This document shows, one piece after another, positions 10,087 to 32,284 of a stretch of 64,000 bases of DNA. This DNA comes from a virus. Taxonomy: Duplodnaviria > Heunggongvirae > Uroviricota > Caudoviricetes. The stretch's first letter is position 1, and each line of letters starts with the position of its first letter. The notes under the pieces are model-generated. The model was not told where the DNA came from and searched no databases. It worked only from the letters and a program-made list of their open reading frames with translations. The DNA lies in IMG/VR virus record IMGVR_UViG_2698536484_000026; one strand, written 5' to 3'. The translations under genes were made by a program, and so were the position numbers.

Positions 10087-10227
10087 TACTGCACCAGTCG
10101 ACAGGGGGCGAAAGCCCCCATTTTTACGCCTTAAATCTGCTGTAACGCCTATGAATGCAGCTTTTATGCCTTTTCAAGTTTGCGATAATTACACCAATCA
10201 GAAAACAAATTATTTAATGGTGTAATT

Positions 10228-11913
10228 ATGAATACAGCCCTTTCTATCATCGACGATGCCAGCTCAAACACGGCTATCGACTATCGTCAGGAAATGAATG
10301 TCATCCACGAAATCGTGGCCGAGTGCGAGAAAGAGATCGCCTTCATGTATCAGGTACACGACTTCGTTTATGGCGACGAACGCCACAACATGATTAATCG
10401 CCTGCTGAGACTAAACCATCGACCAGATGAAGATCGCTCGCGTTTAAATCGAGGTTGGTTGGATAAAGTCGATCTGGAATGGGTGAAACAGAATATTTGG
10501 GCCGAGTACTGGAGGAAGGTCACGGACATGACTAACGTTTTGCTGATCATGCCAGCTTCCCGTCGAGATGAGTGGCGCGAGCAGTTTATAGAGGGCAAAC
10601 AGGAAGTCATCAAAACTGACAGAACCGGCTACCAGATGAAGGTTAAAGAGTTCGTTGGTGTACCGGAGTTCAAAGCAGAAACGGTCATACCCACGATGCT
10701 TAATTTGCTGAATGACAGGCACAAATATCTCTCTGAGCGCGTGTATGGCTTGTTTAAGGCGCTGAGTCCTGCGCACAAGACAAATAAGACAAACGGTTTC
10801 AGCGAGCGTCTGATAATCGCTGACTGCATTTCTGATTTCTGGCGGGACAGCGTTAGCGTGAACTATCGCAAAGAGGACTACATCGACGATCTGCGTGTCT
10901 TGCTTCATTTCTTCGCGCACAAAGAATTTATTACCATCAACCGCACTGCTGAGGTGCTATCAGCTGCGTATAGGGCAAACGACTGCCAGACCGGTGACTG
11001 GATGAACGTCGATGGAAATCTGATGCGCGTGAAGATGTTCAAGAACGGCAACGTTCACTTTGAAATACATCCTGACGTGGCCTGGAAGTTGAATGAGGTG
11101 CTGGCTTACAGTATGCCTGCTGCAATCCCCGCGCCATGCCGAACTGCGCCAAAAACACGGGCACCAAAGCAGTTCGGTTTAATCCAGAAGACGATCTCCG
11201 TGCCGGTTCGCACTGCGCTTCGTGACGGGCGATTGAGCAAAGACAAAGGCGTATGGTACTTCTCTGATTCAGCTCTCCAGAAGTCGCAGGTGGAAGAGCT
11301 TGAGCGCACACTTAGCTTCATTGGCGGCGTGCAGGAGAAAAAGCACTGGCAGTTCCCGTATGAGATCGGCCATACGCTAAATACGATTGTGGCTACCGGA
11401 TTAATACCGGATACAAAATCACACCAGTTCTACCCTACCCCACGCTTGATTGCTGAGTACGTTGCCAGAGCCACTGAATTGAAGCCTGGTGAGAAGCTGC
11501 TGGAGCCTCAAGCCGGACGTGGGGAGCTTCTGGCCTATATTAACGCCGATCTGGAAGATGTTACCTGCATAGAAATCGCACCTCTCTTCGCTGATATCCT
11601 GCGTGGAAAAGGGTATACGAACACGATTTGCTGCGACTTCATAAAGTGGTCTGAGGACAACGCAGGTTATCAGTTCGACAAAATCGTTATGAACCCGCCG
11701 TACTCGCTTGGTCGTCATAGAGAGCACACGATGGCTGCGCTGGGGCATCTGAAAGTCGGCGGGCGTCTTGTAGCAGTATTGCCGGGCACTGCGCCAATAC
11801 TGGACTGGATGACGATGGATAATTACGTTTATGCCAGAGGGAAGTCGTTTACCAACGAGTTTGAAGATACCGGGATCACAGTCAGCGTATACGTTTTCAA
11901 ACGCGTTAAATGA
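10228..11913 (+). CDS. Putative N6-adenine methyltransferase fused to a large N-terminal domain of unknown function
   Basis: C-terminal FYPTP, EPQAGRGELL and NPPYS motifs; N-terminal 380 aa unassigned. Confidence 0.6.
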   Translation: MNTALSIIDDASSNTAIDYRQEMNVIHEIVAECEKEIAFMYQVHDFVYGDERHNMINRLLRLNHRPDEDRSRLNRGWLDKVDLEWVKQNIWAEYWRKVTDMTNVLLIMPASRRDEWREQFIEGKQEVIKTDRTGYQMKVKEFVGVPEFKAETVIPTMLNLLNDRHKYLSERVYGLFKALSPAHKTNKTNGFSERLIIADCISDFWRDSVSVNYRKEDYIDDLRVLLHFFAHKEFITINRTAEVLSAAYRANDCQTGDWMNVDGNLMRVKMFKNGNVHFEIHPDVAWKLNEVLAYSMPAAIPAPCRTAPKTRAPKQFGLIQKTISVPVRTALRDGRLSKDKGVWYFSDSALQKSQVEELERTLSFIGGVQEKKHWQFPYEIGHTLNTIVATGLIPDTKSHQFYPTPRLIAEYVARATELKPGEKLLEPQAGRGELLAYINADLEDVTCIEIAPLFADILRGKGYTNTICCDFIKWSEDNAGYQFDKIVMNPPYSLGRHREHTMAALGHLKVGGRLVAVLPGTAPILDWMTMDNYVYARGKSFTNEFEDTGITVSVYVFKRVK

Positions 11914-11974
11914 TAGGTAAATACTTACTTAATTTGTGTAAGAATGTAGTAACTAAACGAGAAGAGAAAAACAC

Positions 11975-12679
11975 ATGAGCAACCTCCAGTTAGAGCATTT
12001 TAACGTCACAGGCCGTTCTGATTTTTCTTTCAAGTTTACATTGAAAGGTTATGCAGAGGATGCGGTAGGCCAGATCATTATTGATAAAGGCATCGTTAAG
12101 TTTGAGGGGGATTTTGATGAATCCGCGAAAACATTCATAGACTTCGTTGCCAAACGTTGGAGCGAGCAATGGAAAGACCTGGAAAAGCGCGCTAATGAGT
12201 TTGATCGGTTCATGGATGCAATGGATACAGCAAAAGAGGCTCTTGCTGCCGGGACTCCGTTAGATCTGGAGTCACTTTTCAACGGCGAAGTGGCCTCTGC
12301 GATGTTCGCCACCATGTTCGCGGGTGAGTTCGTCCGCAGCGGTGCCAAAAACTACCTTGAGCTGGATTACAACGTCCCTGCAATTGGCGATTTCGTCGTT
12401 ACCATCCAACGCAAAGAAGGTAAGACGCCAGGTGAACGCGTCGCAGAGCTTGAGGCTGTTGTGGATCAGCGTAACGGAGAGTGTGACCGTTTGATCAACG
12501 AGCTTCATGCACTTCGGGAAGAAAGAATATGCGCGGGTAGCAATACACGTAATGCTGCGGATATCTACTTCCAGTTAGTTGAGGAATGCCAGATTCCACC
12601 AGGTGGCTCTCTTGTCGATTACGTCAGACATTTAATGGCGGAAGTTAACTCCAGCCATAAAGATGGTGAGGTGCGCTGA
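11975..12679 (+). CDS. Hypothetical protein
   Basis: ORF with RBS; stop overlaps next start. Confidence 0.45.
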   Translation: MSNLQLEHFNVTGRSDFSFKFTLKGYAEDAVGQIIIDKGIVKFEGDFDESAKTFIDFVAKRWSEQWKDLEKRANEFDRFMDAMDTAKEALAAGTPLDLESLFNGEVASAMFATMFAGEFVRSGAKNYLELDYNVPAIGDFVVTIQRKEGKTPGERVAELEAVVDQRNGECDRLINELHALREERICAGSNTRNAADIYFQLVEECQIPPGGSLVDYVRHLMAEVNSSHKDGEVR

Positions 12680-13059
12680 TGTTTGGCATTGACGCACAGC
12701 GTATAGCCGCTTTTGCAAAAAGCCCTCTTGATAATCCCTTGTCTCGTAGTGAGCAAATGGAGCTGGCAAGGCTTTTTCTTCATATTCAAAAACAGGCAGA
12801 CGTTTTCAATAACATGCCTGATCAACCTATTCTGGATGGTCACATCCAGATGGTCATTAACAGTCATGAGAAAGGCTGGGCTGCAATCGTCCCCTGCACA
12901 ATTACATACAAGTTGGCGAAAGAGGTTCAAGAGTTTCGAAAAGCCAGTGTCGAATCGGAGTCTACCAAAGCCGCAATAAACACTCTTATTCGCATGGGGT
13001 TCACATGGGACGGTGGAGCTTACTGGCAAGCACCTCAACCCATTTTATCCGGCAATTAG
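12679..13059 (+). CDS. Hypothetical protein
   Basis: Coupled to preceding ORF; terminator-like hairpin 13090-13110 follows. Confidence 0.4.
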   Translation: MFGIDAQRIAAFAKSPLDNPLSRSEQMELARLFLHIQKQADVFNNMPDQPILDGHIQMVINSHEKGWAAIVPCTITYKLAKEVQEFRKASVESESTKAAINTLIRMGFTWDGGAYWQAPQPILSGN

Positions 13060-13178
13060 GCGCTACAAATCCTTCTGCATGAATAAATAAAGGCCATAAC
13101 TTATGGCCTTAAATAAATTGTTTTCTGCCTTTTCTTATTTGTGAAAATAACCACAACTAGAAAACAACGGAGTTAAGA

Positions 13179-13820
13179 ATGTCTAGTATTTCCGAAGCAC
13201 ATATGTTCGCCGCTGGCGCTCATGGTGGCGTTGGTCAGAAAAGAAAATATACAGGTGAAGATTATATAAATCATCCGGTTGCTGTCCGAGAGATCGTTGC
13301 ATTGCATGACGGAACCGTGGAGATGCAGATCGCGGCGCTTCTGCATGATGTGGTCGAAGACACAAATGTAACCATAGAGATGGTTCGTGATCACTTCGGT
13401 GAGCGCGTAGCTGAAATGGTTCTGGCTCTGACCAACATTGCAAGGCCAGAAGACGGCAATCGAATACAGCGTTTCATCATCAATGTCCGGGAGCTGGAGC
13501 AAAATCTCAACATGCAGACGCGCATGATCAAGCTGGCTGACCTGCTGGACAATACCTCTTCTATCGTGAGTCGCGATCCTGAGTTTTCAGCTATCTACCT
13601 TGCAGAGAAAGAACTGATGCTGGACGTACTCTTTAACGGCAAAGAGATTGGTGCCAATGCTGATGTTGTCGAGTACATGGAGAGGGTAGGTATAGAACAC
13701 CCGTTGCTATTAAGCGCAATGGCGAAAGTGACAGAAGGTATTGCGCTTCTGAAACCGGTACACATCAAACGTTATGAAAAACACAAATCGCTGATCTGGA
13801 GCGCGTGGGAGGCTGCATGA
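13179..13820 (+). CDS. RelA/SpoT-type HD-domain hydrolase (putative (p)ppGpp hydrolase)
   Basis: AHGGVGQKRKYTGEDYINHPVAV...AALLHDVVEDT matches RelA/SpoT HD hydrolase domain. Confidence 0.65.
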   Translation: MSSISEAHMFAAGAHGGVGQKRKYTGEDYINHPVAVREIVALHDGTVEMQIAALLHDVVEDTNVTIEMVRDHFGERVAEMVLALTNIARPEDGNRIQRFIINVRELEQNLNMQTRMIKLADLLDNTSSIVSRDPEFSAIYLAEKELMLDVLFNGKEIGANADVVEYMERVGIEHPLLLSAMAKVTEGIALLKPVHIKRYEKHKSLIWSAWEAA

Positions 13821-14359
13821 AGGTCGAAAAAATAGATGTTCTTTCCTTTGTGCTGACGGATCTGGAACGCCTCGATCCGGTTCGAGTGATGATTGAAAAC
13901 TACGAACCTGGTAAGGGAAGAATCACCATCACCTGCTACGGAAAAGCGTGGACTGCGGCTTGGTTTGCTATGGGCGGTGATGATGTGCAGACGTTCATCA
14001 AGCGAGTTAGCAACGACTATCTAATCGACAATTTCGACCCTCAACTGCTAAGCACGGTCGACGATGACAACGATGCAAATCTGCTTTTCGTGAAGTCAGA
14101 AATCATAAAGTTACGAAGAGAGAGAGAAATCGATGCTGTACAGGCTCGCGAAATGTGGGTCGAGGCGGAAAACGCAGATGATGTCAAAGAAAGCTGCTGT
14201 TGTCTCGGCATCGGTAACAAACTGCTGAATCTATTTGGTGATGATCCGTGGTATGCCGACTGGCCAACGATACCAAACCCGAAATACCAGTATCTGGAAC
14301 GCATTGTGAACGCGGTACGTGAAGGGCTGAAAGAGTTAGACAAGTTAGAGGCATCGTAA
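13817..14359 (+). CDS. Hypothetical protein
   Basis: ATG overlaps previous stop; part of coupled gene string. Confidence 0.4.
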   Translation: MKVEKIDVLSFVLTDLERLDPVRVMIENYEPGKGRITITCYGKAWTAAWFAMGGDDVQTFIKRVSNDYLIDNFDPQLLSTVDDDNDANLLFVKSEIIKLRREREIDAVQAREMWVEAENADDVKESCCCLGIGNKLLNLFGDDPWYADWPTIPNPKYQYLERIVNAVREGLKELDKLEAS

Positions 14360-14814
14360 TGAGAGAGAAAATCAAGAACCCGGTCGTCGTATTGTATAAA
14401 CGGGAAACCAGCGATTCTTATGCGGTATCCATCACTGATGGAAGCCAGAACATGCACGATGGTCTGCTAATGGCCTCCGTATCTCCTGATGATTCGGACT
14501 ACCCTTTCGCCACTTTCGCTATGGTTGGTTACTACATGGCTGCCGAAATTGAGAAGTTGCGGGCGCAGAGAGACGCATTAGCGGCGGAGAATGCAGCCCT
14601 GAAAGAATCTGAGCGAGCATTCGATGCGATGTGTGCCGAGGAACACGGAGATAATTGGGTTAGCGAATTAACGGAGACTCCAGCAACCGATGCTTTTCTG
14701 GCTGAAGTACGTGCGCAGGGCGTGGAGATGTTTGCTGAGTGCGCATACACACTTGAACATCATGATCACGCAGTAGCTTTTGCCGCTGAGCTTCGTACAG
14801 GAGCTAAACAGTGA
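14359..14814 (+). CDS. Hypothetical protein
   Basis: Coupled ORF. Confidence 0.4.
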   Translation: MREKIKNPVVVLYKRETSDSYAVSITDGSQNMHDGLLMASVSPDDSDYPFATFAMVGYYMAAEIEKLRAQRDALAAENAALKESERAFDAMCAEEHGDNWVSELTETPATDAFLAEVRAQGVEMFAECAYTLEHHDHAVAFAAELRTGAKQ

Positions 14815-15377
14815 ATGAGATTTACTACCTGACGTTACGTGAACGTTATTCACCAAAACCAGCGCCTAAATGCTCTGTTTGTGGCGAGGAAATGTCAATA
14901 CAGCGCATATCTGGAGCACATGTTGTTTATGCCTGTTCCGGTGAGGGTGATGACGGATATTTTAAGATAGGGCGTACTTTTGCAGACGAACATTATGAAA
15001 AATCACGCGTAACAGTAGTTGATGATAGTGATCCCGATGTGATTGCACTGCTGGACGAACTGGATAAAAGACAGCAACACATCCGACGTCTTGAGCAGGA
15101 GAACGTAGAGATGGCCCTAACGCTTGAGAAACTGCGTGTTGAGCTGGAGACCGTTAAACAGCGGGAAAAGGATCTGTTTATGGAAAATGTTCGACTTAAG
15201 TCAGGTATAGCAGGTCTGATACACCTCGGTATTCGATATGCGGATGTCGAAGTCATGAAAATAGCTGGAGATGCCCAGCTTTCTACTCCCTGTACTGACA
15301 GCATCATAAACAGTATTGCATCAGGCGTTTTCACCAAAGAGGGTCAGCATGATGAGAACAGTAGAAGTTCGCGCTGA
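14811..15377 (+). CDS. Hypothetical protein with CxxC...C zinc-ribbon-like N-terminus
   Basis: CSVCGEEMS...YACSG; coupled ORF. Confidence 0.4.
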   Translation: MNEIYYLTLRERYSPKPAPKCSVCGEEMSIQRISGAHVVYACSGEGDDGYFKIGRTFADEHYEKSRVTVVDDSDPDVIALLDELDKRQQHIRRLEQENVEMALTLEKLRVELETVKQREKDLFMENVRLKSGIAGLIHLGIRYADVEVMKIAGDAQLSTPCTDSIINSIASGVFTKEGQHDENSRSSR

Positions 15378-15537
15378 AGATGTAACCCCAGGTGATGTGG
15401 TCATAACATCTAAAGGCAAACGATGTGCGGTTAAATCTTTCTGGATGAACGGTGAAAAAGTGACTCTGTTCGGTACGGATGGTTCCGAAACTGATTATGA
15501 CTACGACGAATTGCTTGTTGTTGAGAGAGCTACCTAA
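15349..15537 (+). CDS. Hypothetical small protein
   Basis: Short ORF overlapping neighbours in operon. Confidence 0.3.
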   Translation: MMRTVEVRAEDVTPGDVVITSKGKRCAVKSFWMNGEKVTLFGTDGSETDYDYDELLVVERAT

Positions 15538-16073
15538 TGACCACCTTTACCAAAGAACAGTTAATCTCCCATGCACGCGAAAGCGTTAGTTATCTGGAAG
15601 ACTTGAAAGGACGTGTTAGTAAAGAAGGAGCGGACTGCAAAGTTGTTCATGAGATGGTTGAACGAGATCTAAAACTGGCTCGAATTGCACTGACCTCACT
15701 GGAGGCAGAGCCAGTGGCGTGGCTGGTAACACTCACAAAAAACGATCAGGAATCAGTCTCTATTATTTACCGTGACTGTGCAGAGAAAGATACATGGGTT
15801 CGGATACATGAGTCACTCGGTTCTGTCGCACATGTTGCCCCGCTTTACATGGCGCAGCCAGAACCGTCGAAGGAGGAGAAAGGACGTTCAGTCATCCAGG
15901 GTAAAGCCGATAATTCACCATTGCCGCGCTACCAGGTTATCGAATTAACAATGCTGGTTAAACAATTGGTCAGCCAACTGAAAAAAGCAAAACCTGATTG
16001 CAAATTACCGGATAGGGCAATGGATTATCTTTTGCGGAACGGACTGCTAAGTGTGGAGGATGCCTTACGATGA
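15537..16073 (+). CDS. Hypothetical protein
   Basis: Coupled ORF. Confidence 0.4.
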   Translation: MTTFTKEQLISHARESVSYLEDLKGRVSKEGADCKVVHEMVERDLKLARIALTSLEAEPVAWLVTLTKNDQESVSIIYRDCAEKDTWVRIHESLGSVAHVAPLYMAQPEPSKEEKGRSVIQGKADNSPLPRYQVIELTMLVKQLVSQLKKAKPDCKLPDRAMDYLLRNGLLSVEDALR

Positions 16074-16657
16074 TTGAAATGACAAAAGAAGAACTAACAC
16101 AGGCAACAAAGGATTACGGAAAAAAGCACATCGCACATCGTATGGCGAATGTGTTACTGGCCTTGTCTGAACAAAAGCCATCTGCGTTTGTAATGAAAGA
16201 TGATTTGGCCGATCCGGCAATTGTTTCGACTCCGGCATATTTAGATATTGAGGATGCGGAACAAAAAACGATTGGGGATATTGTCGCGCTTTATGCCGAT
16301 CCCTTTCCTGTCATCGGCGACACTACTGCTCTTGTGGACGATATTTTAAACATTCTCGCGCTTCTTGAGGCTGGCGATTGGTCAGAACATTGCACTAAAA
16401 CGGAGTTAGGCGGTCGGCTTGAAAGAGAGATTACACAACTTATTGGTGATGCCCAAAATGATTTGTCACCTGAGCATCTCCCCTGCGATGTAGTCCTTGT
16501 GCCAGGGATGAGGATACACGAAGGCGTCAGAACGAAAACATTATTAACCGCATTACAGAGAAGAGCCGAACTAAGCTCGCGGATAAAGTTGATGCCATCC
16601 AAAATATTTGATGTCGTCAAATTTACGCCATCGCAACATACTGAGAGAGATAAATGA
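16070..16657 (+). CDS. Hypothetical protein
   Basis: Coupled ORF. Confidence 0.4.
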   Translation: MIEMTKEELTQATKDYGKKHIAHRMANVLLALSEQKPSAFVMKDDLADPAIVSTPAYLDIEDAEQKTIGDIVALYADPFPVIGDTTALVDDILNILALLEAGDWSEHCTKTELGGRLEREITQLIGDAQNDLSPEHLPCDVVLVPGMRIHEGVRTKTLLTALQRRAELSSRIKLMPSKIFDVVKFTPSQHTERDK

Positions 16658-17286
16658 GCACGGTAGCGAAAGATCTCACAGAAGATATTCTCAATGAAAT
16701 TATTGCTGGTGCAAATACCTCGCTTGAGCAACTTCTTGCGTTAGCACTGAGAGCCGAACGTCGAGACAGAAATCGTTTTTATGAACGATTACCAGGGAAA
16801 CGACCAGATAGATCAGATGAAGAAGGTTGCGATATAGACTACATGGAGCCTTCAGAGATTTATCAACTTGGTAAAGATGACGGCTGGAACGCTTATCACG
16901 ATGCTGTGATGAAGTTGGATGAAAAAGTTAAACCTCTTTCTCGACCGGTAGATCACGGTTTCCGCGATAACTGCGAATGCTCTAGTTGCCAGACCACGGC
17001 CCGTATTTGTTCCGAATTGACAGATAAGTCCAGCCTAATCTACGAAGTTAATGTAGGCGGTAATACATGGGTCGAATGCACAAGAGCTGCATACGTAAGA
17101 GCAAAAGACAAGGGTGAATTAACCAGAGTTGTTGCCCATCACCCAAATAATGAGCTTAAAGATCACCAGATTAGAGAACTGGTGAATGAGTTGCGGGATA
17201 TTGCGGTTCAGTACCACGGAACGCAGCAATTGCGGGAGAAAATTGCCAGAGCAGTGAACAACTCAATTAGATCAGAAAGTATGTAG
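16654..17286 (+). CDS. Hypothetical protein (Cys-containing)
   Basis: Last gene of left + strand operon; hairpin 17302-17321 downstream. Confidence 0.4.
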   Translation: MSTVAKDLTEDILNEIIAGANTSLEQLLALALRAERRDRNRFYERLPGKRPDRSDEEGCDIDYMEPSEIYQLGKDDGWNAYHDAVMKLDEKVKPLSRPVDHGFRDNCECSSCQTTARICSELTDKSSLIYEVNVGGNTWVECTRAAYVRAKDKGELTRVVAHHPNNELKDHQIRELVNELRDIAVQYHGTQQLREKIARAVNNSIRSESM

Positions 17287-17720
17287 TCAATACAATAAAA
17301 TGGCCCCATTTGGATGGGGCCGGTAACAACTAGCATTATGGGCGCTGGTTGACGTACTCAATGATCGCTTCGATGATTGCGAACATAGGCGGCACGATTT
17401 TGAAAAGTAAGTTAAGCACTATAGGCCTCACTTAGTTTTATCGCACCTAGCTGCAAATACCTTTGAGCTTGCCTTTGCAGTTGCAATATCTGTAGTCGCC
17501 AGATACTTACGGCACGATTTCGAGTTAAGGTAAGGTTTTAGAGTCACCAAAAACCTGGACTTAAATCTTCTTTGAGAACAACGATGTTTGGTAAATGGTC
17601 ATTATTACCTAGCATGACGGCTCAACGTTTCTTGATGAATCCAGTACATTCGGTTAATCTTAGCTCAGTCGCCAGATACTTATGGCTCAGGAACAGAGGC
17701 GCAAACTCTGTTTCCTTTTA

Positions 17721-17753
17721 AAAAGCCCAGCCTAGTCAACTGGGCTTTTTTAA
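17721..17753. terminator. Bidirectional rho-independent terminator
   Basis: agcccag...ctgggct stem flanked by A-run upstream and TTTTTTA downstream. Confidence 0.5.
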
Positions 17754-18046
17754 TGTCCGTTTTTAACCAAATGTACCCACAATACCGCAACATCAGTGTC
17801 TTGCGAATTAAGATAGGATTTATAGAGACTATGTGCAAGTGCATAACTTTGTGGATAACTCGTAAAGGAAAAAGTGGTTTCCGCGGACATTAGTTCAGAC
17901 AAGGAGTCTGGGAAAGTCAATGGGAAGTAAAAATTTGTTAAAAATAACGTTTGTTGGAATTGTATATATTTATGCCTTTCAATAGTTAGCATCTTATTAA
18001 CATCTTTTTTAAGAGATAGAGTTCAAAAATATATAGCTTCAACATA

Positions 18047-18066
18047 TACTGTATGCATATACAGCA
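18047..18066 (+). promoter_or_regulatory. LexA (SOS) box
   Basis: TACTGTATGCATATACAGCA fits CTGT-N8-ACAG, 17 bp upstream of UmuD'-like start. Confidence 0.6.
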
Positions 18067-18082
18067 TTAAGAGGCGAGTATT

Positions 18083-18472
18083 ATGGGCTTCCCTTCTCCT
18101 GCGGCGGATTATGCTGAGAGCCGTATTTCTCTTGATCAGCAGATAATTAGACATCCTTCAGCGACCTACTTCATGAGGGCGGCTGATAGTCATCATCGTG
18201 AGGGAATATTGCAGGGTGCATTGCTGGTGGTCGATTCCTCACTGACTCCTGTTGATGGATCTCTTCTTGTATGTGCTCTGGATGGGGAATATCGCGTAAA
18301 AAGATACCGGAAGTATCCACGTCAGCATCTGGAGGATTTAAGAACTGGTAAGAAGGAAGCATTGCCAAAGGATGATGATGGATGCACGGGCAGCAATGCC
18401 GTGTTTGGTGTGATCACTCACATTATCAACGACGCAAGAAGTGGCGAGTTTGATGATTGTCCTGTGATGTAG
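18083..18472 (+). CDS. umuD: UmuD'-like S24 peptidase-fold protein, N-terminally truncated (P1 HumD-like); no umuC partner
   Basis: GFPSPAADY...HPSATYF...DS...VK aligns to UmuD from about residue 25 onward; in-frame stop 15 nt upstream fixes the start. Confidence 0.7.
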   Translation: MGFPSPAADYAESRISLDQQIIRHPSATYFMRAADSHHREGILQGALLVVDSSLTPVDGSLLVCALDGEYRVKRYRKYPRQHLEDLRTGKKEALPKDDDGCTGSNAVFGVITHIINDARSGEFDDCPVM

Positions 18473-18483
18473 GAGAACTGTTT

Positions 18484-18510
18484 AGGTGGTGCATTGCACC
18501 ACCTTTTTAT
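18484..18510 (+). terminator. Rho-independent terminator
   Basis: Perfect 9-bp stem aggtggtgc/gcaccacct followed by TTTTAT. Confidence 0.55.
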
Positions 18511-19610
18511 CACACTGCGCGGAATGCGATTTCGCCAGGTATTACTTCACCTTGCCAATACATTTGGGCAGCAACGCGATCTGCGAGGTCACGATAAATA
18601 GCCGTAAATTCGCTATCTGGACGACTAATAACGGTTGGTGTTCCGTTATCCAGATCTTCACGAAGAGAGATATGAAGTGGCATTTGGCCTAACAACTGCG
18701 TGTTGTATTTCTCGGCCAGTTTCTGTGCGCCACCGGTGCCAAAAATTGGCTCGTGATGACCGCAGTTACTGCAAATATGCACACTCATGTTTTCGACGAT
18801 ACCTAGTACCGGCACTTCGACTTTTTCGAACATCACAATGCCTTTCTTCGCATCGATCAGCGCGATGTCTTGCGGCGTAGTTACCACAACCGCACCAGTT
18901 ACAGGAATGTTCTGCGCCAGCGTCAATTGAATATCACCAGTGCCCGGCGGCATATCGAGAACGAGATAGTCCAGATCAGGCCACAGTGTTTCCTGCAACA
19001 TCTGCATCAACGCCTTGCTGGCCATCGGTCCACGCCACACCATTGCATTGTCGTCGGTGACCAGATAACCAATAGAGTTGGTTGCCAGGCCATGAGACAT
19101 GATAGGTGCCATGTGAGTACCGTCCGGTGAGGTTGGACGTTGGTTTTCCGCGCCCAGCATGGTTGGAATTGATGGACCATAGATATCGGCATCCAAAATA
19201 CCAACTTTCGCACCTTCAGCAGCCAAAGCCAGTGCCAAGTTTACTGCTGTGGACGATTTGCCTACACCGCCCTTGCCTGAGCTTACGGCGATAATATTCT
19301 TAACACCATTAATGCCTGGTTGGTTTTTGACGCGCTTAAGCGTGGCAATGTTGTACGACAGCTTCCAGTCAATAGCCTTTGCGCCAGTGATACGGAGCAG
19401 ATCACCACTACATTGCTCTTTCAGGTCTTCAAAAGGCTTATTCCACACGAAAGGCATGATTAGTTCGACATGCAGTGTGTCATCCATCAACGCAACATGG
19501 TGTAACGCTTTAAGCGTAGTCAGGTTGTGTTTCAGGGTTGGGTGCTGAAAATTAGCCAGCGTACCGGCTACCATTGCTCTCAGGGCATCCGGCGATTTGG
19601 ACTCGCTCAT
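18510..19610 (-). CDS. apbC: Iron-sulfur cluster carrier ATPase ApbC/Mrp
   Basis: Near full-length match to enterobacterial Mrp: AVSSGKGGVGKSSTAVNLALALA, MPPGTGD, C-terminal CSNCGH. Confidence 0.9.
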   Translation of the reverse strand: MSESKSPDALRAMVAGTLANFQHPTLKHNLTTLKALHHVALMDDTLHVELIMPFVWNKPFEDLKEQCSGDLLRITGAKAIDWKLSYNIATLKRVKNQPGINGVKNIIAVSSGKGGVGKSSTAVNLALALAAEGAKVGILDADIYGPSIPTMLGAENQRPTSPDGTHMAPIMSHGLATNSIGYLVTDDNAMVWRGPMASKALMQMLQETLWPDLDYLVLDMPPGTGDIQLTLAQNIPVTGAVVVTTPQDIALIDAKKGIVMFEKVEVPVLGIVENMSVHICSNCGHHEPIFGTGGAQKLAEKYNTQLLGQMPLHISLREDLDNGTPTVISRPDSEFTAIYRDLADRVAAQMYWQGEVIPGEIAFRAV

Positions 19611-19767
19611 CCCGTCTCCTTTATTTTAATTTGCGCAATTGTCGCCTTGTAGTGTACTCCAGCTGCGACATTTAATCATTTATGAGAAATGCTGTTATCA
19701 CATGGCAGACATAAGGCCATTTTGTTACTATCAAGCCCCTTTTCACTACAAAGAAGTAATGCCTACT

Positions 19768-21801
19768 ATGACCCAAGTCGCGAAGAAAATTCTGGTGACG
19801 TGCGCGCTGCCGTACGCTAACGGCTCAATCCACCTCGGCCATATGCTGGAGCACATCCAGGCTGATGTCTGGGTTCGTTACCAGCGAATGCGCGGCCACG
19901 AGGTTAATTTCATCTGTGCCGACGATGCCCACGGTACGCCGATCATGCTGAAAGCACAGCAACTTGGTATCACACCGGAGCAGATGATTGGCGAAATGAG
20001 TCAGGAACACCAGACTGATTTCGCAGGCTTTAACATCAGCTATGACAACTATCACTCGACGCACAGCGAAGAGAACCGTCAGTTGTCTGAGCTTATCTAT
20101 ACTCGCCTGAAAGAGAACGGTTTTATTAAAAATCGCACTATCTCTCAGTTGTACGACCCGGAAAAAGGCATGTTCCTGCCGGATCGTTTTGTGAAAGGCA
20201 CCTGCCCGAAATGTAAAGCGCCAGATCAATACGGCGATAACTGTGAAGTTTGCGGCGCGACCTACAGCCCGACTGAACTGATCGAGCCGAAATCGGTGGT
20301 TTCTGGTGCTACCCCGGTAATGCGTGATTCTGAACACTTCTTCTTTGATCTGCCCTCTTTCAGCGAAATGTTGCAGGCATGGACCCGCAGCGGTGCGTTG
20401 CAGGAGCAGGTGGCAAACAAAATGCAGGAGTGGTTTGAATCTGGTCTGCAACAGTGGGATATCTCCCGCGACGCACCTTACTTCGGTTTTGAAATTCCGA
20501 ACGCGCCGGGTAAATATTTCTACGTCTGGCTGGACGCACCGATTGGCTACATGGGTTCCTTCAAGAATCTGTGCGACAAGCGCGGCGACACTACCAGCTT
20601 CGATGAATACTGGAAGAAAGACTCCACCGCCGAGCTGTACCACTTCATCGGTAAAGATATCGTTTACTTCCACAGCCTGTTCTGGCCTGCCATGCTGGAA
20701 GGCAGCAACTTCCGCAAGCCGACCAACCTGTTTGTTCACGGCTATGTGACGGTGAACGGCGCGAAGATGTCCAAGTCTCGCGGCACCTTTATTAAAGCCA
20801 GCACCTGGTTGAATCATTTTGACGCTGACAGCCTGCGTTACTACTACACTGCGAAACTCTCTTCGCGCATTGATGATATCGATCTCAACCTGGAGGATTT
20901 CGTTCAGCGTGTGAATGCCGATATCGTGAACAAAGTGGTTAACCTGGCGTCCCGTAACGCTGGCTTTATCAATAAGCGTTTTGACGGTGTGCTGGCAAGC
21001 GAGCTGGCTGACCCGCAGTTGTACAAAACCTTCACTGATGCCGCTGAAGTGATTGGTGAAGCGTGGGAAAGCCGCGAATTTGGTAAAGCTATCCGTGAAA
21101 TCATGGCACTGGCTGACCTGGCTAACCGCTATGTCGACGAGCAGGCTCCTTGGGTAGTCGCAAAACAGGAAGGTCGCGATGCTGACCTGCAGGCGATTTG
21201 CTCAATGGGCATCAACCTGTTCCGCGTGCTGATGACTTACCTGAAACCGGTACTGCCGAAACTGACAGAACGTGCGGAAGCATTCCTGAATACGGAACTG
21301 ACCTGGGATGGCATCCAGCAACCGCTGCTGGGCCATAAAGTGAATCCGTTCAAAGCACTGTATAACCGTATCGACATGAAACAGGTGGAAGCACTGGTGG
21401 AAGCGTCTAAAGAAGAAGTGAAAGCTACTGCCGCGCCAGTTACTGGCCCGCTGGCAGACGACCCGATTCAGGAAACCATCACCTTTGACGACTTTGCCAA
21501 AGTTGACCTGCGCGTGGCACTGATCGAAAACGCAGAGTTTGTTGAAGGTTCTGACAAACTGCTGCGCCTGACGCTGGATCTCGGCGGTGAAAAACGCAAT
21601 GTCTTCTCAGGCATCCGTTCTGCTTATCCAGACCCACAGGCACTGATTGGTCGTCACACCATTATGGTGGCTAACCTGGCTCCGCGTAAGATGCGCTTCG
21701 GCATCTCCGAAGGTATGGTGATGGCTGCTGGCCCCGGCGGGAAAGATATCTTCCTGTTAAGCCCGGATGCTGGTGCTAAACCTGGCCACCAGGTTAAGTA
21801 A
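19768..21801 (+). CDS. metG: Methionine--tRNA ligase
   Basis: [26 protein letters not shown] (HIGH), KMSKS, CPKC...C zinc knuckles, C-terminal tRNA-binding domain; 677 aa from ATG 19768. Confidence 0.95.
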
Positions 21802-21820
21802 TTAAGCAACCTCTGTTCGC

Positions 21821-21850
21821 AATGCCCGGCAACACGCTGGGCATTTTCAT
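21821..21850 (+). terminator. Terminator-like hairpin after metG
   Basis: atgccc...gggcat stem followed by TTTT. Confidence 0.5.
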
Positions 21851-21962
21851 ATAGACACAATCCCTCCTGATTTACACAAGCCCTAAAACAATTTGTTTTC
21901 TACCTTTTGTTGATTGAGATAATAAGCCGCATAAGAAAACAAATTGTTTCGGAGTGGTTGAA

Positions 21963-22262
21963 ATGTTGAACATTACCCAAGCCTACCAGGTGGCATTGAT
22001 CAGTTCATCTCATACATCAGAGGAAGATGCTCGCCGATTCATGATCGCAAGCAATGAGCTGGATTGGGTTTCACAAATTGATGGCGGTTGTATTGTCCAC
22101 GCCGGGTTACAGGATGATGTCTGGAAAGACGACTTGCGTCGATATGGTATATCCGAAGGCGCGATTGCTAACATTCAGAAAGTACTTGATGTAGGCTTTG
22201 ACTCTGTACATTTTGATTGTGGTGCGCCGATCGTTGAAGGGCTTGAGTGCTGGTGTTGGTAG
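21963..22262 (+). CDS. Hypothetical protein
   Basis: Preceded by conserved promoter-like element and AAGAAAACAAATTGTTT motif. Confidence 0.4.
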   Translation: MLNITQAYQVALISSSHTSEEDARRFMIASNELDWVSQIDGGCIVHAGLQDDVWKDDLRRYGISEGAIANIQKVLDVGFDSVHFDCGAPIVEGLECWCW

Positions 22263-22393
22263 AGTGTATAAGCGGATCAATGAGTTACGGAAACAGTTAA
22301 TAATGAGGAGCTTGTAATAAGCTGTATACCCTAGAAAAGCTAGACTAGGGAATAAAATGACGTGAAACTGGGCGAGACAGTAAATAATTCCGA

Positions 22394-23623
22394 ATGATAA
22401 TTGAACAAATAACCCCTTGCTCGGAGCTTGGAATGACTGATACCGCTTTTTCAAAATCGTTACAAAAAGAAGTCGATCCTGAGCAGTACTTGGCGCTAAA
22501 GAATTTAGATGACAGCTCGGTTCATGCTATTGCCCGTGACGATATCATCTGCCCCATTTGCAAAGTTGGAGGTGGTTCGTTCGTTAGAGCCACAAGGAAT
22601 GGTGGCTATCACAAGAAGGCGCATTTCAGATTTACCGGTGAAGATGGTCAAGGCCATCATCCATCATGTGATTTCTATGGAGATAGACTAACATCTGAGG
22701 TGAAGCAGCACCTTGTCTCATTCACAAAAGATCGAACAAAGTATTCGCAGGTAATACGAAAGCTGGTCTGTGCCGGCATACAGGAAGGGATATTTACTCA
22801 AGAAAAAATGTGGCAGATGAGGGAATGGTTCTTCAATAAGCGAAAGGATTCCACATTTGAAATATGGTTAGAAAGCGAGCATTTAGACTGGCTTTATTAT
22901 ATTAGTGGGTTACGTGATGCATATCTAGCATGGACAACTCCTGATATTCTACCTTTCGCGCCCATTCAGGTTACTGTGCCTGGTTTTTCTTGGAAGCGTG
23001 CGATTGACAAAGAGGTGCTAAGAGTTCACATCAAGACTCTCCAGCAATTGCGTGAAATTTCAGTCTCACATAGAGACATTGCTGTAATCTTAGAACACAT
23101 AAACAATAATCGTGACCGCACAATTCTCGATCCATCGCATTTGGAGGACGAGATAAGTAAGACCTATAAGCTTACTAGTTTTGTGATGGGCAATTACATT
23201 GAGTTTCAGACAAAAACGGTTAGCGACAGAGCATACGGGGAAGCTAAGTTTCTGGCATTTGCAGCACTTTTGTTGTTCGTGTCAGATTGGGACCTCAACA
23301 TTGCTATTGGTAAGTTTTCTAAGATTGCCAGAGTGAAGGAGGTTGATGACATGCTGGCTGGTAATTTCATTGGTCTTAATCCTTACTTCCGATACGACCT
23401 GGCTAATGCAGTGAAGAGATTGCAGGATAACTGGCCGATTGAATACCAAGAGTTGGAGCATTGGAATGTTGAGAAATCCATGCGTGACGCATATGAAAAG
23501 TGGCGTGCGACAGAGCCTGAATTCGCTCCACCCCTATTGCCAGACTTGTATATTGCCAAACATGAGAAAGAAGTCGCACAAGACGAGCAAGTCAGGCAGT
23601 GGATTAAGAACGGGGATGTTTGA
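22394..23623 (+). CDS. Hypothetical 409-aa protein with CPICK...HHPSC zinc-ribbon-like motif
   Basis: Long ORF with AT-rich upstream region; no recognised family. Confidence 0.45.
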   Translation: MIIEQITPCSELGMTDTAFSKSLQKEVDPEQYLALKNLDDSSVHAIARDDIICPICKVGGGSFVRATRNGGYHKKAHFRFTGEDGQGHHPSCDFYGDRLTSEVKQHLVSFTKDRTKYSQVIRKLVCAGIQEGIFTQEKMWQMREWFFNKRKDSTFEIWLESEHLDWLYYISGLRDAYLAWTTPDILPFAPIQVTVPGFSWKRAIDKEVLRVHIKTLQQLREISVSHRDIAVILEHINNNRDRTILDPSHLEDEISKTYKLTSFVMGNYIEFQTKTVSDRAYGEAKFLAFAALLLFVSDWDLNIAIGKFSKIARVKEVDDMLAGNFIGLNPYFRYDLANAVKRLQDNWPIEYQELEHWNVEKSMRDAYEKWRATEPEFAPPLLPDLYIAKHEKEVAQDEQVRQWIKNGDV

Positions 23624-24689
23624 GTGTAATTAGCTTAATCAATCAGTTGATAATGGCGGTCACAATTTGATTCTTTTCTATAAGAATCCGTTGATCGCCA
23701 CTACTCTTCTTCCATACCTGCAATCACACCTTTAAATATCAATAGGTTAGCGTTGTTTATACCAATAAGAAAACAACTAAATAACAGATCAACGAAACGT
23801 CAACGCTTTCACCCGATTTGGTCTAAAAAATTGACGTTTTCACACATCACTGCTTATACCCGTAACTCTACGCAGCAGACAGCGCCACAGAGTCCAATTT
23901 TCACCACAGACGACTCAACACACTACCAACAAAAACACACGCTCAAAATCGCTCCCGCTGCGTTACACAACCATATAAACAACATATTTTCAGGTATAAC
24001 AAAACAACTAAATAACACATATGCCATTCCCCAAAACAACCAACCTCTTTATGGCAGGCTACCGAAAAGACCCACCTCTTCTCCCCAGGCTACTGGACAA
24101 CCAACCTAACTTTCACAGGCAATCCGAAAACATTCATACGCGCGATACCCACGACACGCCATTCCCCAAACAGCGAAGAAACACCAGAATCACTGAAACC
24201 CCAACGAAGCCTGTAACCGCAAGGATTCTCTCAATCCCAAAAGACTCGAAGCATAACAATCACGGGAAACGCCATTACCCAATACACGAATAACTACAAA
24301 AGCCTTTCACACACTCCAGACAAACAACTCAAACACAATAACGAAAGGAATCGCCCACCTGCCATTACTCCATACACGGAGAAGAACAATCACCAAAACG
24401 ACGAGAACACCCCATAGAAGAACCACCGCAAAACGAACGAAACCACATACACCGACAGAGAAAACAACACACCCAATTCACCAACAGAAATAGTCGCCGT
24501 ATAGAACATTCTGGAAGGAGTGAGCATTAACGCCTATAGAGAGGTTGAGACAGATAAAACACAACATGTATAGCGAAGAAGCCAGGTATGTATAAGTGGG
24601 GAGGGAAGGAGGGGTGTCGCCTCCTTTTTCGTATTTATTCAACTCCTGATTTTATCCCCCCGTAACACCCCTACGGTCAGCCTTCGGTC

Positions 24690-24835
24690 CATACAGGGAA
24701 AAGGCTGCATCCCGCTACAGAAACGGCTGGGTTGCCTTCGGGGAACGGCTGGAGGTTTTCAGGGAAACGGTCGAGTTGCCTGTGTGGATTTCGGGAAAAG
24801 GCTCGATGCCGGTTCAGGAACGGTGGCGTACCGGT
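24690..24835. repeat. Iteron-like direct repeat array A (GGGAAACGGCTG-type units)
   Basis: Six degenerate copies of GG(G)AA(A)(A/C)GG(C/T)NG at about 24696, 24720, 24741, 24761, 24792, 24816. Confidence 0.45.
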
Positions 24836-25185
24836 ATAGCGAGAGGGAGAGTTGCGGCTACCCACCTGTAATGTGCGGGAAGAAGAGAGGCGCTCACGTA
24901 GGCGGACTTGCTTACCGCTGGATTCCCTCTGAATGCCCAGCTACAGCGTAATTGTGCCAGACAGCCAACGGGTCACAATCGATTTCAGTAGGTTTTCGGG
25001 GAGAGGATTATTCTGCCCACCAGCCACCTTCGGCCACTAAATCAGAATAATGTAAAAAGTATACTCGGTACTGAACCTGAAAACTCACTGCCAAAACCAT
25101 ATTCACCGGAATAAAATCCTTTTTCGCCTGTGCGTTATTGCGATAATAACACCATCAAGAAAACATGTTGTTTAAGGATTGCTTT

Positions 25186-25515
25186 ATGTTTGCAAATATC
25201 GACATCAACCAAATCAAGAAATTAACTCAAAAAGAGTTTGATCAGTTTTATGAGTTAGAAGGTTGGTCTTCCACTCTGATCAATTCAAGATGGGTGCTGG
25301 AACTGATGACTCGTGATGACGCACCTGCTTTGATAATTTGCGACATGGGTGAAGATGCTGACTTTATGGATATGAGCGAATTTTGTGTGGACACATACAA
25401 CCGCAGCCAGAAGTACTACTTCACATGCGATAGCGAAAATGACGTGATTTCTAAGGTCTATCTTCACCTCGTCCAGCATTGGGACGTTCAGGAGTTTCTT
25501 GAAGTATTCGAGTAA
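25186..25515 (+). CDS. Hypothetical protein
   Basis: Preceded by CAAGAAAACATGTTGTTTAAGG motif; terminator hairpin follows. Confidence 0.4.
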   Translation: MFANIDINQIKKLTQKEFDQFYELEGWSSTLINSRWVLELMTRDDAPALIICDMGEDADFMDMSEFCVDTYNRSQKYYFTCDSENDVISKVYLHLVQHWDVQEFLEVFE

Positions 25516-25668
25516 CCCCAACCAAAGCCAGCAATGCTGGCTTAATTTCTCTATAGCCGCAGGGAAGAACCTGCATATCGCTCATGCACCTGATCAATAT
25601 GCTTTGTAGCCGTTTTCTTACTGGTATTATTTACGCCATTGAGAAAACAAGTTGTTTACGGAGTTGTA

Positions 25669-25980
25669 ATGAAAAAATCATTGGTTCTTGGTCTGGACAA
25701 AGACCAGAAGAGAAAAGAGAAGCCTGCGCTGGTTGCTCAATTAACTTTGCTGGACATCGTTGCCAATGGAACCTCTATTCGTCTGTTCCGTGAAACAGCG
25801 GTGTCTTTCGATAAAAACACCTTTACTCGTTATGTAATGAATGTTCGTCGCCAGCGTGGAAAAGGCTGGGTGGCATTTCAAAGAATGTGGCCGGAACATC
25901 AGCTCGAACTGGCTTTGATGGAAGTTAACCGCGTGGCCCAGCAAGAGATTCAGAGAGCATCAGTGATGGCAATAGCCTGA
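25669..25980 (+). CDS. Hypothetical protein
   Basis: Preceded by GAGAAAACAAGTTGTTTACGG motif; terminator 26015-26044 follows. Confidence 0.4.
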   Translation: MKKSLVLGLDKDQKRKEKPALVAQLTLLDIVANGTSIRLFRETAVSFDKNTFTRYVMNVRRQRGKGWVAFQRMWPEHQLELALMEVNRVAQQEIQRASVMAIA

Positions 25981-26106
25981 TAATGTGCAAGTGGCAATTA
26001 GTCGACAGTACGACAGCCCCGCCATCCTTACGGGGCTTTTTTGTATTGTAAGTACATACTTACGATCATAGAATATAAAAATAACCAATACACTACGGAG
26101 AGTGAA

Positions 26107-26502
26107 ATGACCGTTAAACGCGAAAAACTGACAGTTGATGTTTACTATGCCTCTGAAACCGCCGAAGGTAAGAATGTGGCAAAAATCACCGTTGTTACGT
26201 ACAACACCGAAACTGGTGCCGAAGTCCAGGCCAGTACGATCGTGCGTAAAGGTGATGCCTCCGGCGGCGAGTACGCGACTCAATACCAGTCCATTCTCGA
26301 TGCAACTGACCCGCTGCTGCTGAAAATCGAGAACTACTTCCGCCAGGTTGATGAAGAGGTGTTTGAAACCATGATGAATATGGTTAACACCGTATTCGCC
26401 TCCAGCCTGAATACCAACACTACCTGGATTGGTCAGTACGGCCTGCGCATTACCTCTGGCATTCCTGCCGACACCTTAATCCCTGAAAGCGTATTCGCTT
26501 AA
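26107..26502 (+). CDS. Hypothetical protein
   Basis: ORF with GGAG RBS; terminator 26511-26538 follows. Confidence 0.4.
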   Translation: MTVKREKLTVDVYYASETAEGKNVAKITVVTYNTETGAEVQASTIVRKGDASGGEYATQYQSILDATDPLLLKIENYFRQVDEEVFETMMNMVNTVFASSLNTNTTWIGQYGLRITSGIPADTLIPESVFA

Positions 26503-26577
26503 TCCTCTTTAAATGGCGCGTAAACCGCGCCATTTTATTAAGCCCGATAACAATTTGTTTTCTGCCTTATCTGATTT

Positions 26578-26994
26578 GTGAAAATGATTTCACTGAAGCA
26601 ACTTAATAAGGAAACCATCATGGGACTTGATATCTATATCGAGACACAGCCTAAAAACGATCTGAATAACGAGGCATCCAGAAAGCAGGTTGCTTACTTC
26701 CGTAAGTTCAATGCGCTCGTTGGGTGGATGGAGCGCAACGTAGGTGAAGTCGAAAATTGTGAGCTTTTAGAATTAACGATGAATGACATTTGTTTTCTGA
26801 AGGCTCATTTGATGCACATAAACGAAAGTAATTGCGAAGAGTACTTGCCTACCCGGGAAGGTTTTTTCTTCGGCAGTCAGGAGTACGATGAAGGTTACTG
26901 GCATGATGTGGGGCAGTTGAAAGAGCTTGTGGAAGATCTGATTAAGAACCACGACTTTCACAATAACAGACTGACCTTCTGCGCCTGGTGGTAA
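26578..26994 (+). CDS. Hypothetical protein
   Basis: Preceded by conserved AACAATTTGTTTTCTGCC...TGTGAAAAT element. Confidence 0.4.
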   Translation: MKMISLKQLNKETIMGLDIYIETQPKNDLNNEASRKQVAYFRKFNALVGWMERNVGEVENCELLELTMNDICFLKAHLMHINESNCEEYLPTREGFFFGSQEYDEGYWHDVGQLKELVEDLIKNHDFHNNRLTFCAWW

Positions 26995-27344
26995 ATATGG
27001 GCGATTTCAAGAAACGCCTGAAGGAAAGAGCCGAGATGGTCAGAAAGCAAAACGCCTCTTCTGTCATCAGATACGCAAGGCAGTTTAGTCGCAACAACAA
27101 ATCAGTTGAGGAAAAGATCCTTAGCGTAATCGTGCGATAATTATTAAGGCCATCAGCATTGGTGGCCTTAAATGACCATCTTGTTTCCCGCAGGCTAAAA
27201 ACACCAACCTCTTACCTCCAGGCAACCGACAAACCCACCTGTTCCCGTCCGGCTACCGCAACTTTCCACTTTGACGCCTTATTCGTACAACGATAATTAA
27301 CACCAACAAGAAAACAATTTGTTATTTACGATAAGGAATTAATC

Positions 27345-27827
27345 ATGAATTTTATCGCTACTGTAAACGCACCCGCACATGGCAATATCGCTGTAACGTT
27401 CTCTGACATTGAAAAACGAGTACTTGGTGCATGGCGCGACAATGAGACGGTAGAACTGTCAGCACAAGAAAAATGCATTATTGCACGCGACATCATTGGC
27501 AATCGTCGTTACTCGCGGGTATTTGAGAAAGCGTATGTGGTAAATTCTGGATTCGGAACGTTCGTCTTTCCGGTGCGCTCCGGGCGATTCTGCCAGTCCA
27601 AGCTGATTGAGTTCGCTACGCAGATTTCTGTCTGGATTAAAACTCAATCGTCGTTCAAATTTTCCGACGATGAAGCAGTATCGCAGGGGATGCGGATCGC
27701 CAACAATGCAATTAAATGCAAAAACATTACGTATACCGCTGGCGTTGATACATGGAAACTGTTTTGCGCTAACTTTATGCTGAATGTATACGCAAGCAAC
27801 CGCATCCACATCCTTGATGGCGTGTAA
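27345..27827 (+). CDS. Hypothetical protein
   Basis: Preceded by CAAGAAAACAATTTGTT motif; hairpin 27830-27858 follows. Confidence 0.4.
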   Translation: MNFIATVNAPAHGNIAVTFSDIEKRVLGAWRDNETVELSAQEKCIIARDIIGNRRYSRVFEKAYVVNSGFGTFVFPVRSGRFCQSKLIEFATQISVWIKTQSSFKFSDDEAVSQGMRIANNAIKCKNITYTAGVDTWKLFCANFMLNVYASNRIHILDGV

Positions 27828-27869
27828 CTGAGAAGAGGGCCAGAAACGGCCCTTTCTCTATAGCCACCA

Positions 27870-28040
27870 GCTGCCGCAGGGAAATTTTCAGAAGCGGCGA
27901 GGAACGTATTCATGAGCCGACGGGGAACGGCCAGGATTTTTTCGGGAAACGGCTGCATTTGCCTTTGTGTAGAAAAAAACATCGGGAAGCTGGTGGAATC
28001 CAACCAGCGGTTGTCGGACAGGTGAGCGGGGAAAATTATG
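27870..28040. repeat. Iteron-like direct repeat array B (GGGAAACGGC-type units)
   Basis: Six degenerate copies (cagggaaatttt, gaggaacg, cggggaacggccagg, cgggaaacggctgcat, cgggaagctgg, cggggaaaatt). Confidence 0.4.
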
Positions 28041-28665: not shown

Positions 28666-28685
28666 GATTAAGCTCCTTAAAAAAA

Positions 28686-28889: not shown

Positions 28890-28938
28890 TTTTCAAAGCT
28901 CCTTTAAAGCGCCCATAGTGGGCGCTTGATTCCATTAA

Positions 28939-32252: not shown

Positions 32253-32284
32253 AGAATTAGTAGATAGGGGGTAAATATAAAATG

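Follow-up and report, generated by a model that had tools for sequence, protein, structure and literature searches.

The locus considered here raises the question of why intact copies of two bacterial housekeeping genes, apbC and metG, lie between gene-dense phage-type arms in a virus genome fragment. The fragment (64,000 nucleotides, Caudoviricetes, IMG/VR record IMGVR_UViG_2698536484_000026; its whole length is referred to below as the window) had been described in an earlier note as carrying a host-type housekeeping block of UmuD'-like, apbC and metG genes at 17300-21950, and three explanations had been offered unranked: host cargo on a phage or phage-plasmid, two related prophages round a chromosomal locus, or an assembly chimera. 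The first of these proved to be the correct one. The best overall explanation is that the window belongs to a phage-plasmid which has captured an apbC-metG cassette and supplies an extra copy of methionine-tRNA ligase (MetRS), and we place the probability of this reading as a whole at roughly 0.85.

The identity of the element is evident from its relatives. The region 17300-22300 is one base off pRHB19-C05_2, a closed circular plasmid of 110,777 bp from Escherichia fergusonii (sheep faeces), and shows 95-99% identity to non-mobilizable plasmids of ~110 kb from E. coli, E. albertii, E. fergusonii and Shigella sonnei, with pLF82, p09EL50 (O104:H4) and p1538007_2 among the matches. The phage records Cyrano (equivalent to pLF82), PhiR41_1 (entered as a phage whose host is K-12) and CMS-2020a match the same region at 96-97%, and most of positions 1-46000 at 95-98%. 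At a greater distance, window 39-14333 corresponds to SSU5 72523-86824 and window 37443-45976 to SSU5 1-8583, with 81% identity. The replication/nucleotide-metabolism and structural modules are collinear with those of the SSU5 supergroup. Moreover, the terminase/portal segment was located at 245 places in 237 of 5426 complete E. coli genomes, all of them on plasmids and none chromosomal; together with the circular near-identical match, this plasmid-only backbone identifies an unintegrated, extrachromosomal circular replicon of ~100-115 kb. Both flanks of the block are phage-type, as had been claimed, with Ead/Ea22-like and PHROG-only genes on the left and the DUF5983 gene and phrog_12525 on the right, and the accessory/nucleotide-metabolism arm holds thyX, DHFR, RNR and MazG. 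Judged by identity and anatomy, the window is almost certainly part of a circular ~110-kb SSU5-supergroup phage-plasmid of the pLF82/Cyrano/pWPMR2 lineage with apbC-metG as cargo. For Cyrano, virions have been detected by quantitative PCR and transmission electron microscopy, with 39-fold induction by ciprofloxacin and 5.5 plasmid copies per chromosome in strain LF82 (PMC9928086); by likeness to Cyrano and PhiR41_1, the window's own element would be expected to form virions as well.

The borders of the cargo could be read from the sister phage-plasmid pBL12EC-1, in which backbone homology stops with the last base of humD (18472) and starts again at 21872, the space between being filled by a 919-bp cassette with a DUF4145 gene in place of apbC-metG. 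These breakpoints delimit a cargo slot of 3,399 bp (18473-21871). The cargo thus does lie inside the limits first proposed, 17300-21950, but the true slot is only this narrower interval. Since pBL12EC-1 holds other cargo there, the slot between humD and the DUF5983 gene is shown to be exchangeable. Homology to bacterial chromosomes, checked against E. coli K-12 and W170, Escherichia sp., Citrobacter, Salmonella and ~75 other Enterobacterales, extends from 18509/18514 (apbC stop) to 21801/21808 (metG stop), and alignment to the chromosomal loci revealed neither the chromosomal neighbours yehE and a DUF4132 gene nor the chromosomal terminators in the block. Consequently, the earlier description of a native intergenic region with native terminators holds for its first half only. 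The divergent 157-bp spacer between the genes (19611-19767) aligns with chromosomal loci and is of native type, but the terminators are not. A perfect, G+C-rich bidirectional terminator hairpin with T-runs on both sides, situated between humD and apbC (18484-18504), is unrelated to chromosomal apbC 3' sequence, and a terminator-like hairpin 3' of metG (21821-21848, plus strand; stem AATGCCC/GGGCATT, 11-nt loop, T-run) is unrelated to the chromosomal metG terminator; the latter was missed by the terminator scan, whose loop limit was 8 nt, and was read from the sequence. A repeat search found no direct or inverted repeats at the slot borders. As judged from these alignments, the cassette is evidently an enterobacterial apbC-metG locus captured whole, trimmed to both stop codons and with its divergent promoter region kept. 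Insertion by an insertion sequence (IS), a transposon or att-site recombination was considered and rejected, there being no border repeats, no tRNA genes in the window and no transposase annotated in the slot of the window's relatives.

All three genes named in the earlier note are present and intact, as open reading frames and by NCBIfam equivalog scores above cut-off. The product of apbC (mrp; 18510-19610, minus strand, 366 aa) is an Fe-S cluster carrier ATPase by its NF008669 score (759.3 bits vs a cut-off of 348), its Walker A motif GKGGVGKS at residue 112 and its CxxC motif (CSNC) at residue 280, and is 94% identical to the K-12 protein with a 3-aa N-terminal deletion. The metG gene (19768-21801, plus strand) encodes a full-length class I methionine-tRNA ligase of 677 aa (allele WP_001755492.1), which scores 1019.8 bits vs 587 for NF001100 and 163 bits for the C-terminal domain TIGR00399, and carries the motifs HLGH (residue 22), KMSKS (333) and ETIT (569), the two zinc-knuckle CxxC pairs CPKC (146) and CEVC (159), and the C-terminal tRNA-binding domain. 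Compared with K-12 MetRS it has eight conservative substitutions (98.8% identity). As gauged by a ratio of non-synonymous to synonymous divergence (dN/dS) of 0.003-0.023, both among plasmid copies and against K-12, the two genes are under strong purifying selection, and both were intact in every copy examined, with synonymous divergence (dS) among plasmid copies of up to 0.26-0.30. The identity to K-12 and the dN/dS values in combination suggest that the plasmid-encoded MetRS is active in aminoacylation.

The cassette is nearly universal within its lineage. The same block with the same junctions occurs in ~196 closed PLSDB plasmids (E. coli, E. albertii, E. fergusonii and S. sonnei) and in 4 phage records; among E. 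coli complete genomes, 218 have the block and 215 have the backbone at at least 95% identity. The cassette is a fixed, vertically inherited trait of the lineage. Chromosomal metG is kept in 5426 of 5426 E. coli genomes, and the plasmid metG is therefore an extra copy; in strain W170, where the plasmid and chromosomal copies are both present, they are 93.7% identical. Across the E. coli complete genomes the cargo is far more variable than the structural backbone: the block (18300-22300) is at least 99% identical in only 5 genomes, vs 193 for the terminase/portal segment (38000-42000).

The two cargo genes differ in their histories. At the nucleotide level the block is 88% identical to the E. 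coli chromosome overall, but this average conceals values of 82% for apbC and 94% for metG. The dS of apbC against K-12 is 1.64, compared with calibration values for the same gene of 1.34 (K-12/Salmonella) and 1.18 (Citrobacter). For metG it is 0.29, to be set against 0.28 between Escherichia species and 0.90 for K-12/Salmonella. Composition follows the same division. The block has a G+C content of 0.508 vs 0.46 in the arms, and G+C at third codon positions (GC3) is 0.61 in metG vs 0.38-0.46 in neighbouring genes. Within the block, however, metG is close to its K-12 counterpart (0.61 vs 0.625), whereas apbC, at 0.51, lies under all chromosomal homologues (0.60-0.76) and is shifted towards the 0.38-0.46 of the element. 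Divergence and composition, taken as indicators of residence time, thus show an apbC that is old on the element and compositionally ameliorated to lower G+C, and a metG that is Escherichia-like and patchwork.

The patchwork was analysed in sliding windows and, with 100,000 shuffles, at the 120 sites at which window metG differs from K-12. Other plasmid metG copies agree with K-12 at 24-50% of them, in clustered runs; the corresponding figure for apbC is 0-15%. The S. sonnei plasmid copy displays 25 consecutive K-12-type sites, a run matched in length by 0 of the 100,000 shuffles, and the S. sonnei and p09EL50 copies have exact tracts of 140-344 bp in common with K-12 (344 bp in the S. sonnei copy). 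We infer that metG is a mosaic generated by repeated recombination with the chromosomal metG of successive hosts, and that the locus was captured once, long ago, after which apbC drifted compositionally and metG was repeatedly patched from resident chromosomes. The recombination signal in metG looks solid, while its biological consequence is uncertain. Recent conversion within strain W170 was also considered and rejected, its plasmid and chromosomal metG having no common exact tract of at least 100 bp.

As to what the cassette does, a moron (cargo) function of benefit to the host is favoured, with a benefit to the phage as the main rival. The cassette brings its own chromosomal-type promoter region, and the relatives SSU5, the Klebsiella elements and pBL12EC-1 are without it. 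The extended -10 element of metG (TGT TACTAT, 19723-19731) is kept together with the leader in E. coli, Escherichia sp. and Citrobacter, the rest of the apbC-metG spacer being closer to the Citrobacter layout than to that of E. coli; on this conservation the segment is assigned as the putative metG promoter. The cassette also stands outside the operator-controlled units of the element, since 0 of the 21 AGAAAACAANTTGTTT sites fall within 13127-21882. With a promoter of its own and no operator motif, the cassette is therefore not wired into the phage programme. In the uninduced LF82 lysogen, the Cyrano homologue of apbC (CYRAN_99) is transcribed 9-fold above the prophage background (PMC9928086).

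On the basis of this literature, the cassette would rely on promoters of its own for expression in the plasmid state, and the ~5 copies of the element per chromosome in LF82 would amount to several added MetRS gene doses. An extra and variable MetRS could then shift the dosage or composition of the enzyme pool, leading to heterogeneity in growth state and to a subpopulation that survives antibiotics. Several reports bear on such a scheme. The 'highly variable' metG of the S. sonnei phage-plasmid is stated, in PMC12452169 citing Tam et al. (medRxiv 10.1101/2024.10.27.24316207), to give rise to a subpopulation predisposed to third-generation cephalosporin resistance; phage-plasmid metG has thus been reported to favour survival of antimicrobials in this species. 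Elements of the pWPMR2 type occur in 18% of S. sonnei, and also in E. coli CC131, CC23 and CC73 (bioRxiv 10.1101/2025.09.12.675607). The metG gene is a recurrent persistence/tolerance locus, in which lower Met-tRNA synthesis or altered homocysteine editing raises persistence (PMC11004401), and MetRS editing yields homocysteine thiolactone, which acts on lag-phase exit through SdiA (PMC13463772). For the window's own allele, we consider the odds of a tolerance or persistence function to be about even.

A number of observations weigh against parts of this picture. The functional claims of Tam et al. are known second-hand, via the citing paper. The window allele lacks the classical persistence lesions (G263S/S264F, deletion of ETIT 569-572, C-terminal frameshift), and its MetRS likewise lacks the S. 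sonnei-specific substitutions G134C, A410T, A556V and D565E, for which reason the tolerance phenotype may not extend to this allele. The metG gene of Cyrano, CYRAN_100, is not among the LF82 genes at least 5-fold above background (PMC9928086). With regard to history, the high dS of apbC may in part reflect compositional drift and not necessarily a distant donor, and the low dS of metG could be due in part to strong selection on its codon usage, with no need for conversion. Finally, among the 80 Enterobacterales loci listed, ranked by MetG similarity, no apbC donor exceeds 82% identity; E. coli and C. werkmanii are tied at this value as best matches, and no donor is named.

According to the strongest rival, the cassette mainly serves the phage, in the manner of auxiliary metabolic genes and of the aminoacyl-tRNA synthetases of large viruses: in lytic growth or once induced, the phage would gain from MetRS and ApbC a higher capacity for translation initiation and elongation, or more cofactor. 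This has something to recommend it: the element, as represented by Cyrano, yields virions and is SOS-inducible (PMC9928086), the cassette adjoins the LexA-controlled humD in the arm that holds the nucleotide-metabolism and accessory genes, and the purifying selection is strong in all hosts. Nevertheless, the chromosomal-type promoter without the element's operator motif, the expression of the apbC homologue in an uninduced lysogen, and the fact that SSU5, pHCM2-type and Klebsiella relatives manage without the cassette all speak against it, and we regard a phage-directed function as improbable, at perhaps one chance in several. Far less probable still is a neutral hitch-hiker, acquired by one illegitimate recombination and not yet lost. 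The borders without insertion machinery or repeats would suit such an origin, as would the variable content of the slot among relatives, but a neutral passenger is difficult to reconcile with genes that are intact in all copies examined and that combine low dN/dS with the dS values given above, or with retention in ~215 of 215 close-backbone E. coli genomes on a packaged genome of limited size.

The remaining two explanations concern the architecture itself and have a negligible probability. Two related prophages flanking a chromosomal apbC-metG locus would account for arms that are both phage-type and have motifs in common. Yet chromosome homology ends at both stop codons with yehE and the DUF4132 neighbour missing, and the arms form one collinear genome in SSU5 and the Klebsiella phage-plasmids. 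The search for block-free relatives suggested in the earlier note thus succeeded, both arms being contiguous there with only a shorter stretch, devoid of apbC-metG, between them. The backbone is, in addition, never chromosomal (245 of 245 places are on plasmids), the near-identical record is a closed circular plasmid, and the att sites that had been named as the sign of two prophages are not seen: no repeats flank the slot, and the window contains neither chromosomal flank genes nor tRNA genes. An assembly chimera of chromosome and phage contigs, to which only the higher G+C of the block would point, is contradicted by the identical junctions in the four phage records and in the ~196 closed plasmids, which come from four species and were assembled independently, and misjoined host reads are impossible as the block reaches only 88% identity with any E. 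coli chromosome.

Captured cargo on a phage-plasmid is thus the reading retained, and it can be placed among known systems. The closest functional precedent, the S. sonnei phage-plasmid, has the same cassette, slot and right border, a block 96.3% identical and an SSU5-type non-mobilizable backbone (rep_cluster_488). It differs in the four MetRS substitutions and K-12-identical tracts already described, and in a Toprim gene to the left of humD, where the window has an 800-bp spacer and Ea22-type genes. The pLF82/Cyrano element (NC_011917, OV696614) belongs to the same lineage with the same gene order, its block being 96.5% identical and annotated 'MetRS' and 'MinD'; ~20-25% of the left 24 kb has no counterpart, however, and its MetRS is one residue off (N245D). 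The SSU5/pHCM2-type and Klebsiella SSU5-like elements are collinear in the replication/nucleotide-metabolism and structural arms at ~79-84% nucleotide identity, whereas the region between the arms is shorter, with other content and without apbC-metG. The chromosomal apbC (mrp)-metG locus of Enterobacteriaceae corresponds in its divergent pair, gene lengths, metG promoter/leader and catalytic motifs, but differs in flanking terminators and neighbour genes, and the plasmid ApbC is three N-terminal residues shorter.

Giant viruses and large phages carry aminoacyl-tRNA synthetase genes that duplicate a host function. In contrast to these, the enzyme in the window is 98.8% identical to that of the host, retains the host promoter and belongs to a gene that probably recombines with the host copy. 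The apbC-metG cargo as such is already known: database records of it go back to pLF82 and p09EL50, the Cyrano annotation includes it, it forms a PHROG family (phrog_8598), and the pWPMR2 study is devoted to its biology. The additions made here are incremental and consist of the cargo borders, the reassignment of humD and the terminators, the differing ages of apbC and metG, the conversion tracts and the der variant described below.

More tentatively, and at somewhat less than even odds, the humD-DUF5983 slot may be a place at which essential host translation genes are captured (metG throughout, with der/engA in addition in a sub-lineage), with metG in recurrent gene conversion with the chromosomal metG of each host and the element generating MetRS variants and shuttling core-gene alleles. 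If this were true, the element would be both a source of MetRS variants and tolerance phenotypes and a shuttle of core-gene alleles between Escherichia and Shigella. A mobile element that spreads by infection and supplies its hosts with an additional, unusually variable version of an essential translation enzyme is of clinical relevance, and on pWPMR2 the same cassette has been tied to successful multidrug-resistant S. sonnei lineages. In practical terms, housekeeping genes found between phage arms can be genuine selected cargo, and second copies of core genes can confound the calling of single-nucleotide polymorphisms, multilocus sequence typing and genome-wide association studies.

The third gene of the block as first described, the UmuD'-like one, is not of host type. 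This gene, humD (18083-18472, plus strand, 129 aa), forms the left border of the slot and is a P1-type phage backbone gene, a pre-truncated UmuD' homologue outside the cargo. Its product matches NCBIfam equivalog NF051876 over positions 1-129 of 129 (219.8 bits vs a cut-off of 120) and aligns to positions 21-140 of 140 of the PHROG UmuD-like profile, the cleavable N-terminus of UmuD being missing. A LexA (SOS) box, TACTGTATGCATATACAGCA (18047-18066, plus strand; CTG-N10-CAG at 18049-18064), ends 17 nt before the humD start and, from its consensus, probably functions as such. Together with its upstream sequence (17834-18472), humD is 85-88% identical at the nucleotide level to P1, P7, D6 and SJ46. 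As in bacteriophage P1, a full-length HumD is thus preceded by an SOS box; unlike in P1, the window copy resides on an SSU5-type backbone, and some sister plasmids have a host-type der instead. One of these, pZ1323HEC0016-2 (NZ_CP148383.1, L092 6124-7596), carries der/engA, encoding a ribosome-biogenesis GTPase, in place of humD and adjoining apbC-metG, at ~91% identity to E. coli chromosomal der. A query with the der segment hit plasmids at 36 places among E. coli complete genomes; at least 95% identity was reached by 12 records, plasmid and chromosome pooled. The der gene is a second essential translation-related host gene taken up at the humD site.

The segment preceding humD (17287-18082) had likewise been counted, from 17300, as part of the housekeeping block, but is non-coding phage-plasmid DNA in which no coding sequence is annotated in relatives. 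It comprises two parts, a humD-upstream region of the P1/P7 type (17834-18082), with homology to P1/P7/SJ46 beginning at 17834, and a non-coding portion of ~540 bp (17290-17833) found only in the window's phage-plasmid lineage. In the latter, the 15-mer GTCGCCAGATACTTA stands in two exact copies, at 17495 and at 17668, and a terminator-like double hairpin followed through to about 17690-17752 (plus strand) has a T-run and a fold z-score of -2.4. This portion may encode a small RNA; Rfam gave no match at gathering score anywhere in the window.

On the opposite side, the right slot border is formed by a backbone promoter/operator module (21872-21962, plus strand), in which two inverted copies of AGAAAACAAATTGTTT (21886-21901 and 21934-21949) surround a GATAAT -10. 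It is followed by the first gene of the right arm, a backbone gene of the DUF5983 family (21963-22262, plus strand; Pfam PF19419, E 4.5e-10; phrog_5003), which is kept in pBL12EC-1. The DUF4145-domain gene that occupies the slot of the latter (NZ_CP079776.1, L084 4544-5287) lies on the minus strand and belongs to phrog_1305, 'DNA binding protein'.

The regulatory motif said to be common to both arms was indeed recovered on both sides and not inside the block. The palindrome AGAAAACAANTTGTTT occurs at 21 sites vs 0.35 expected, distributed over 8757-13126 and 21883-37539, often in a 50-nt module with a GATAAT -10 before small accessory genes, and looks like the binding site of a regulator of these genes. 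Three further repeat features were observed elsewhere in the window. A strongly C/A-rich stretch (24030-24520 and 27197-27262; AT skew 0.30) is unannotated in RefSeq relatives; it contains 30-31-nt tandem-like repeats, AAAACAACCAACCTC...GGCTACCG, which recur 3.1 kb downstream, and could represent iterons or an origin, or a long non-coding transcript. A 57-nt AT-rich palindromic element, CCTGC.TCTGTATATATAAATAA...TATATACGGAAGCAGGCT, is present in two copies 31 kb apart (6295-6351 and 37406-37462), the second of which falls where the linear records of SSU5 and Cyrano begin and end (window ~37443); the element may be linked to packaging or genome termini. At the right end of the window, in the region of a probable tail-fibre gene, a 120-nt (40-codon) repeat unit is present six times, grouped into two or three clusters (62004-63647).

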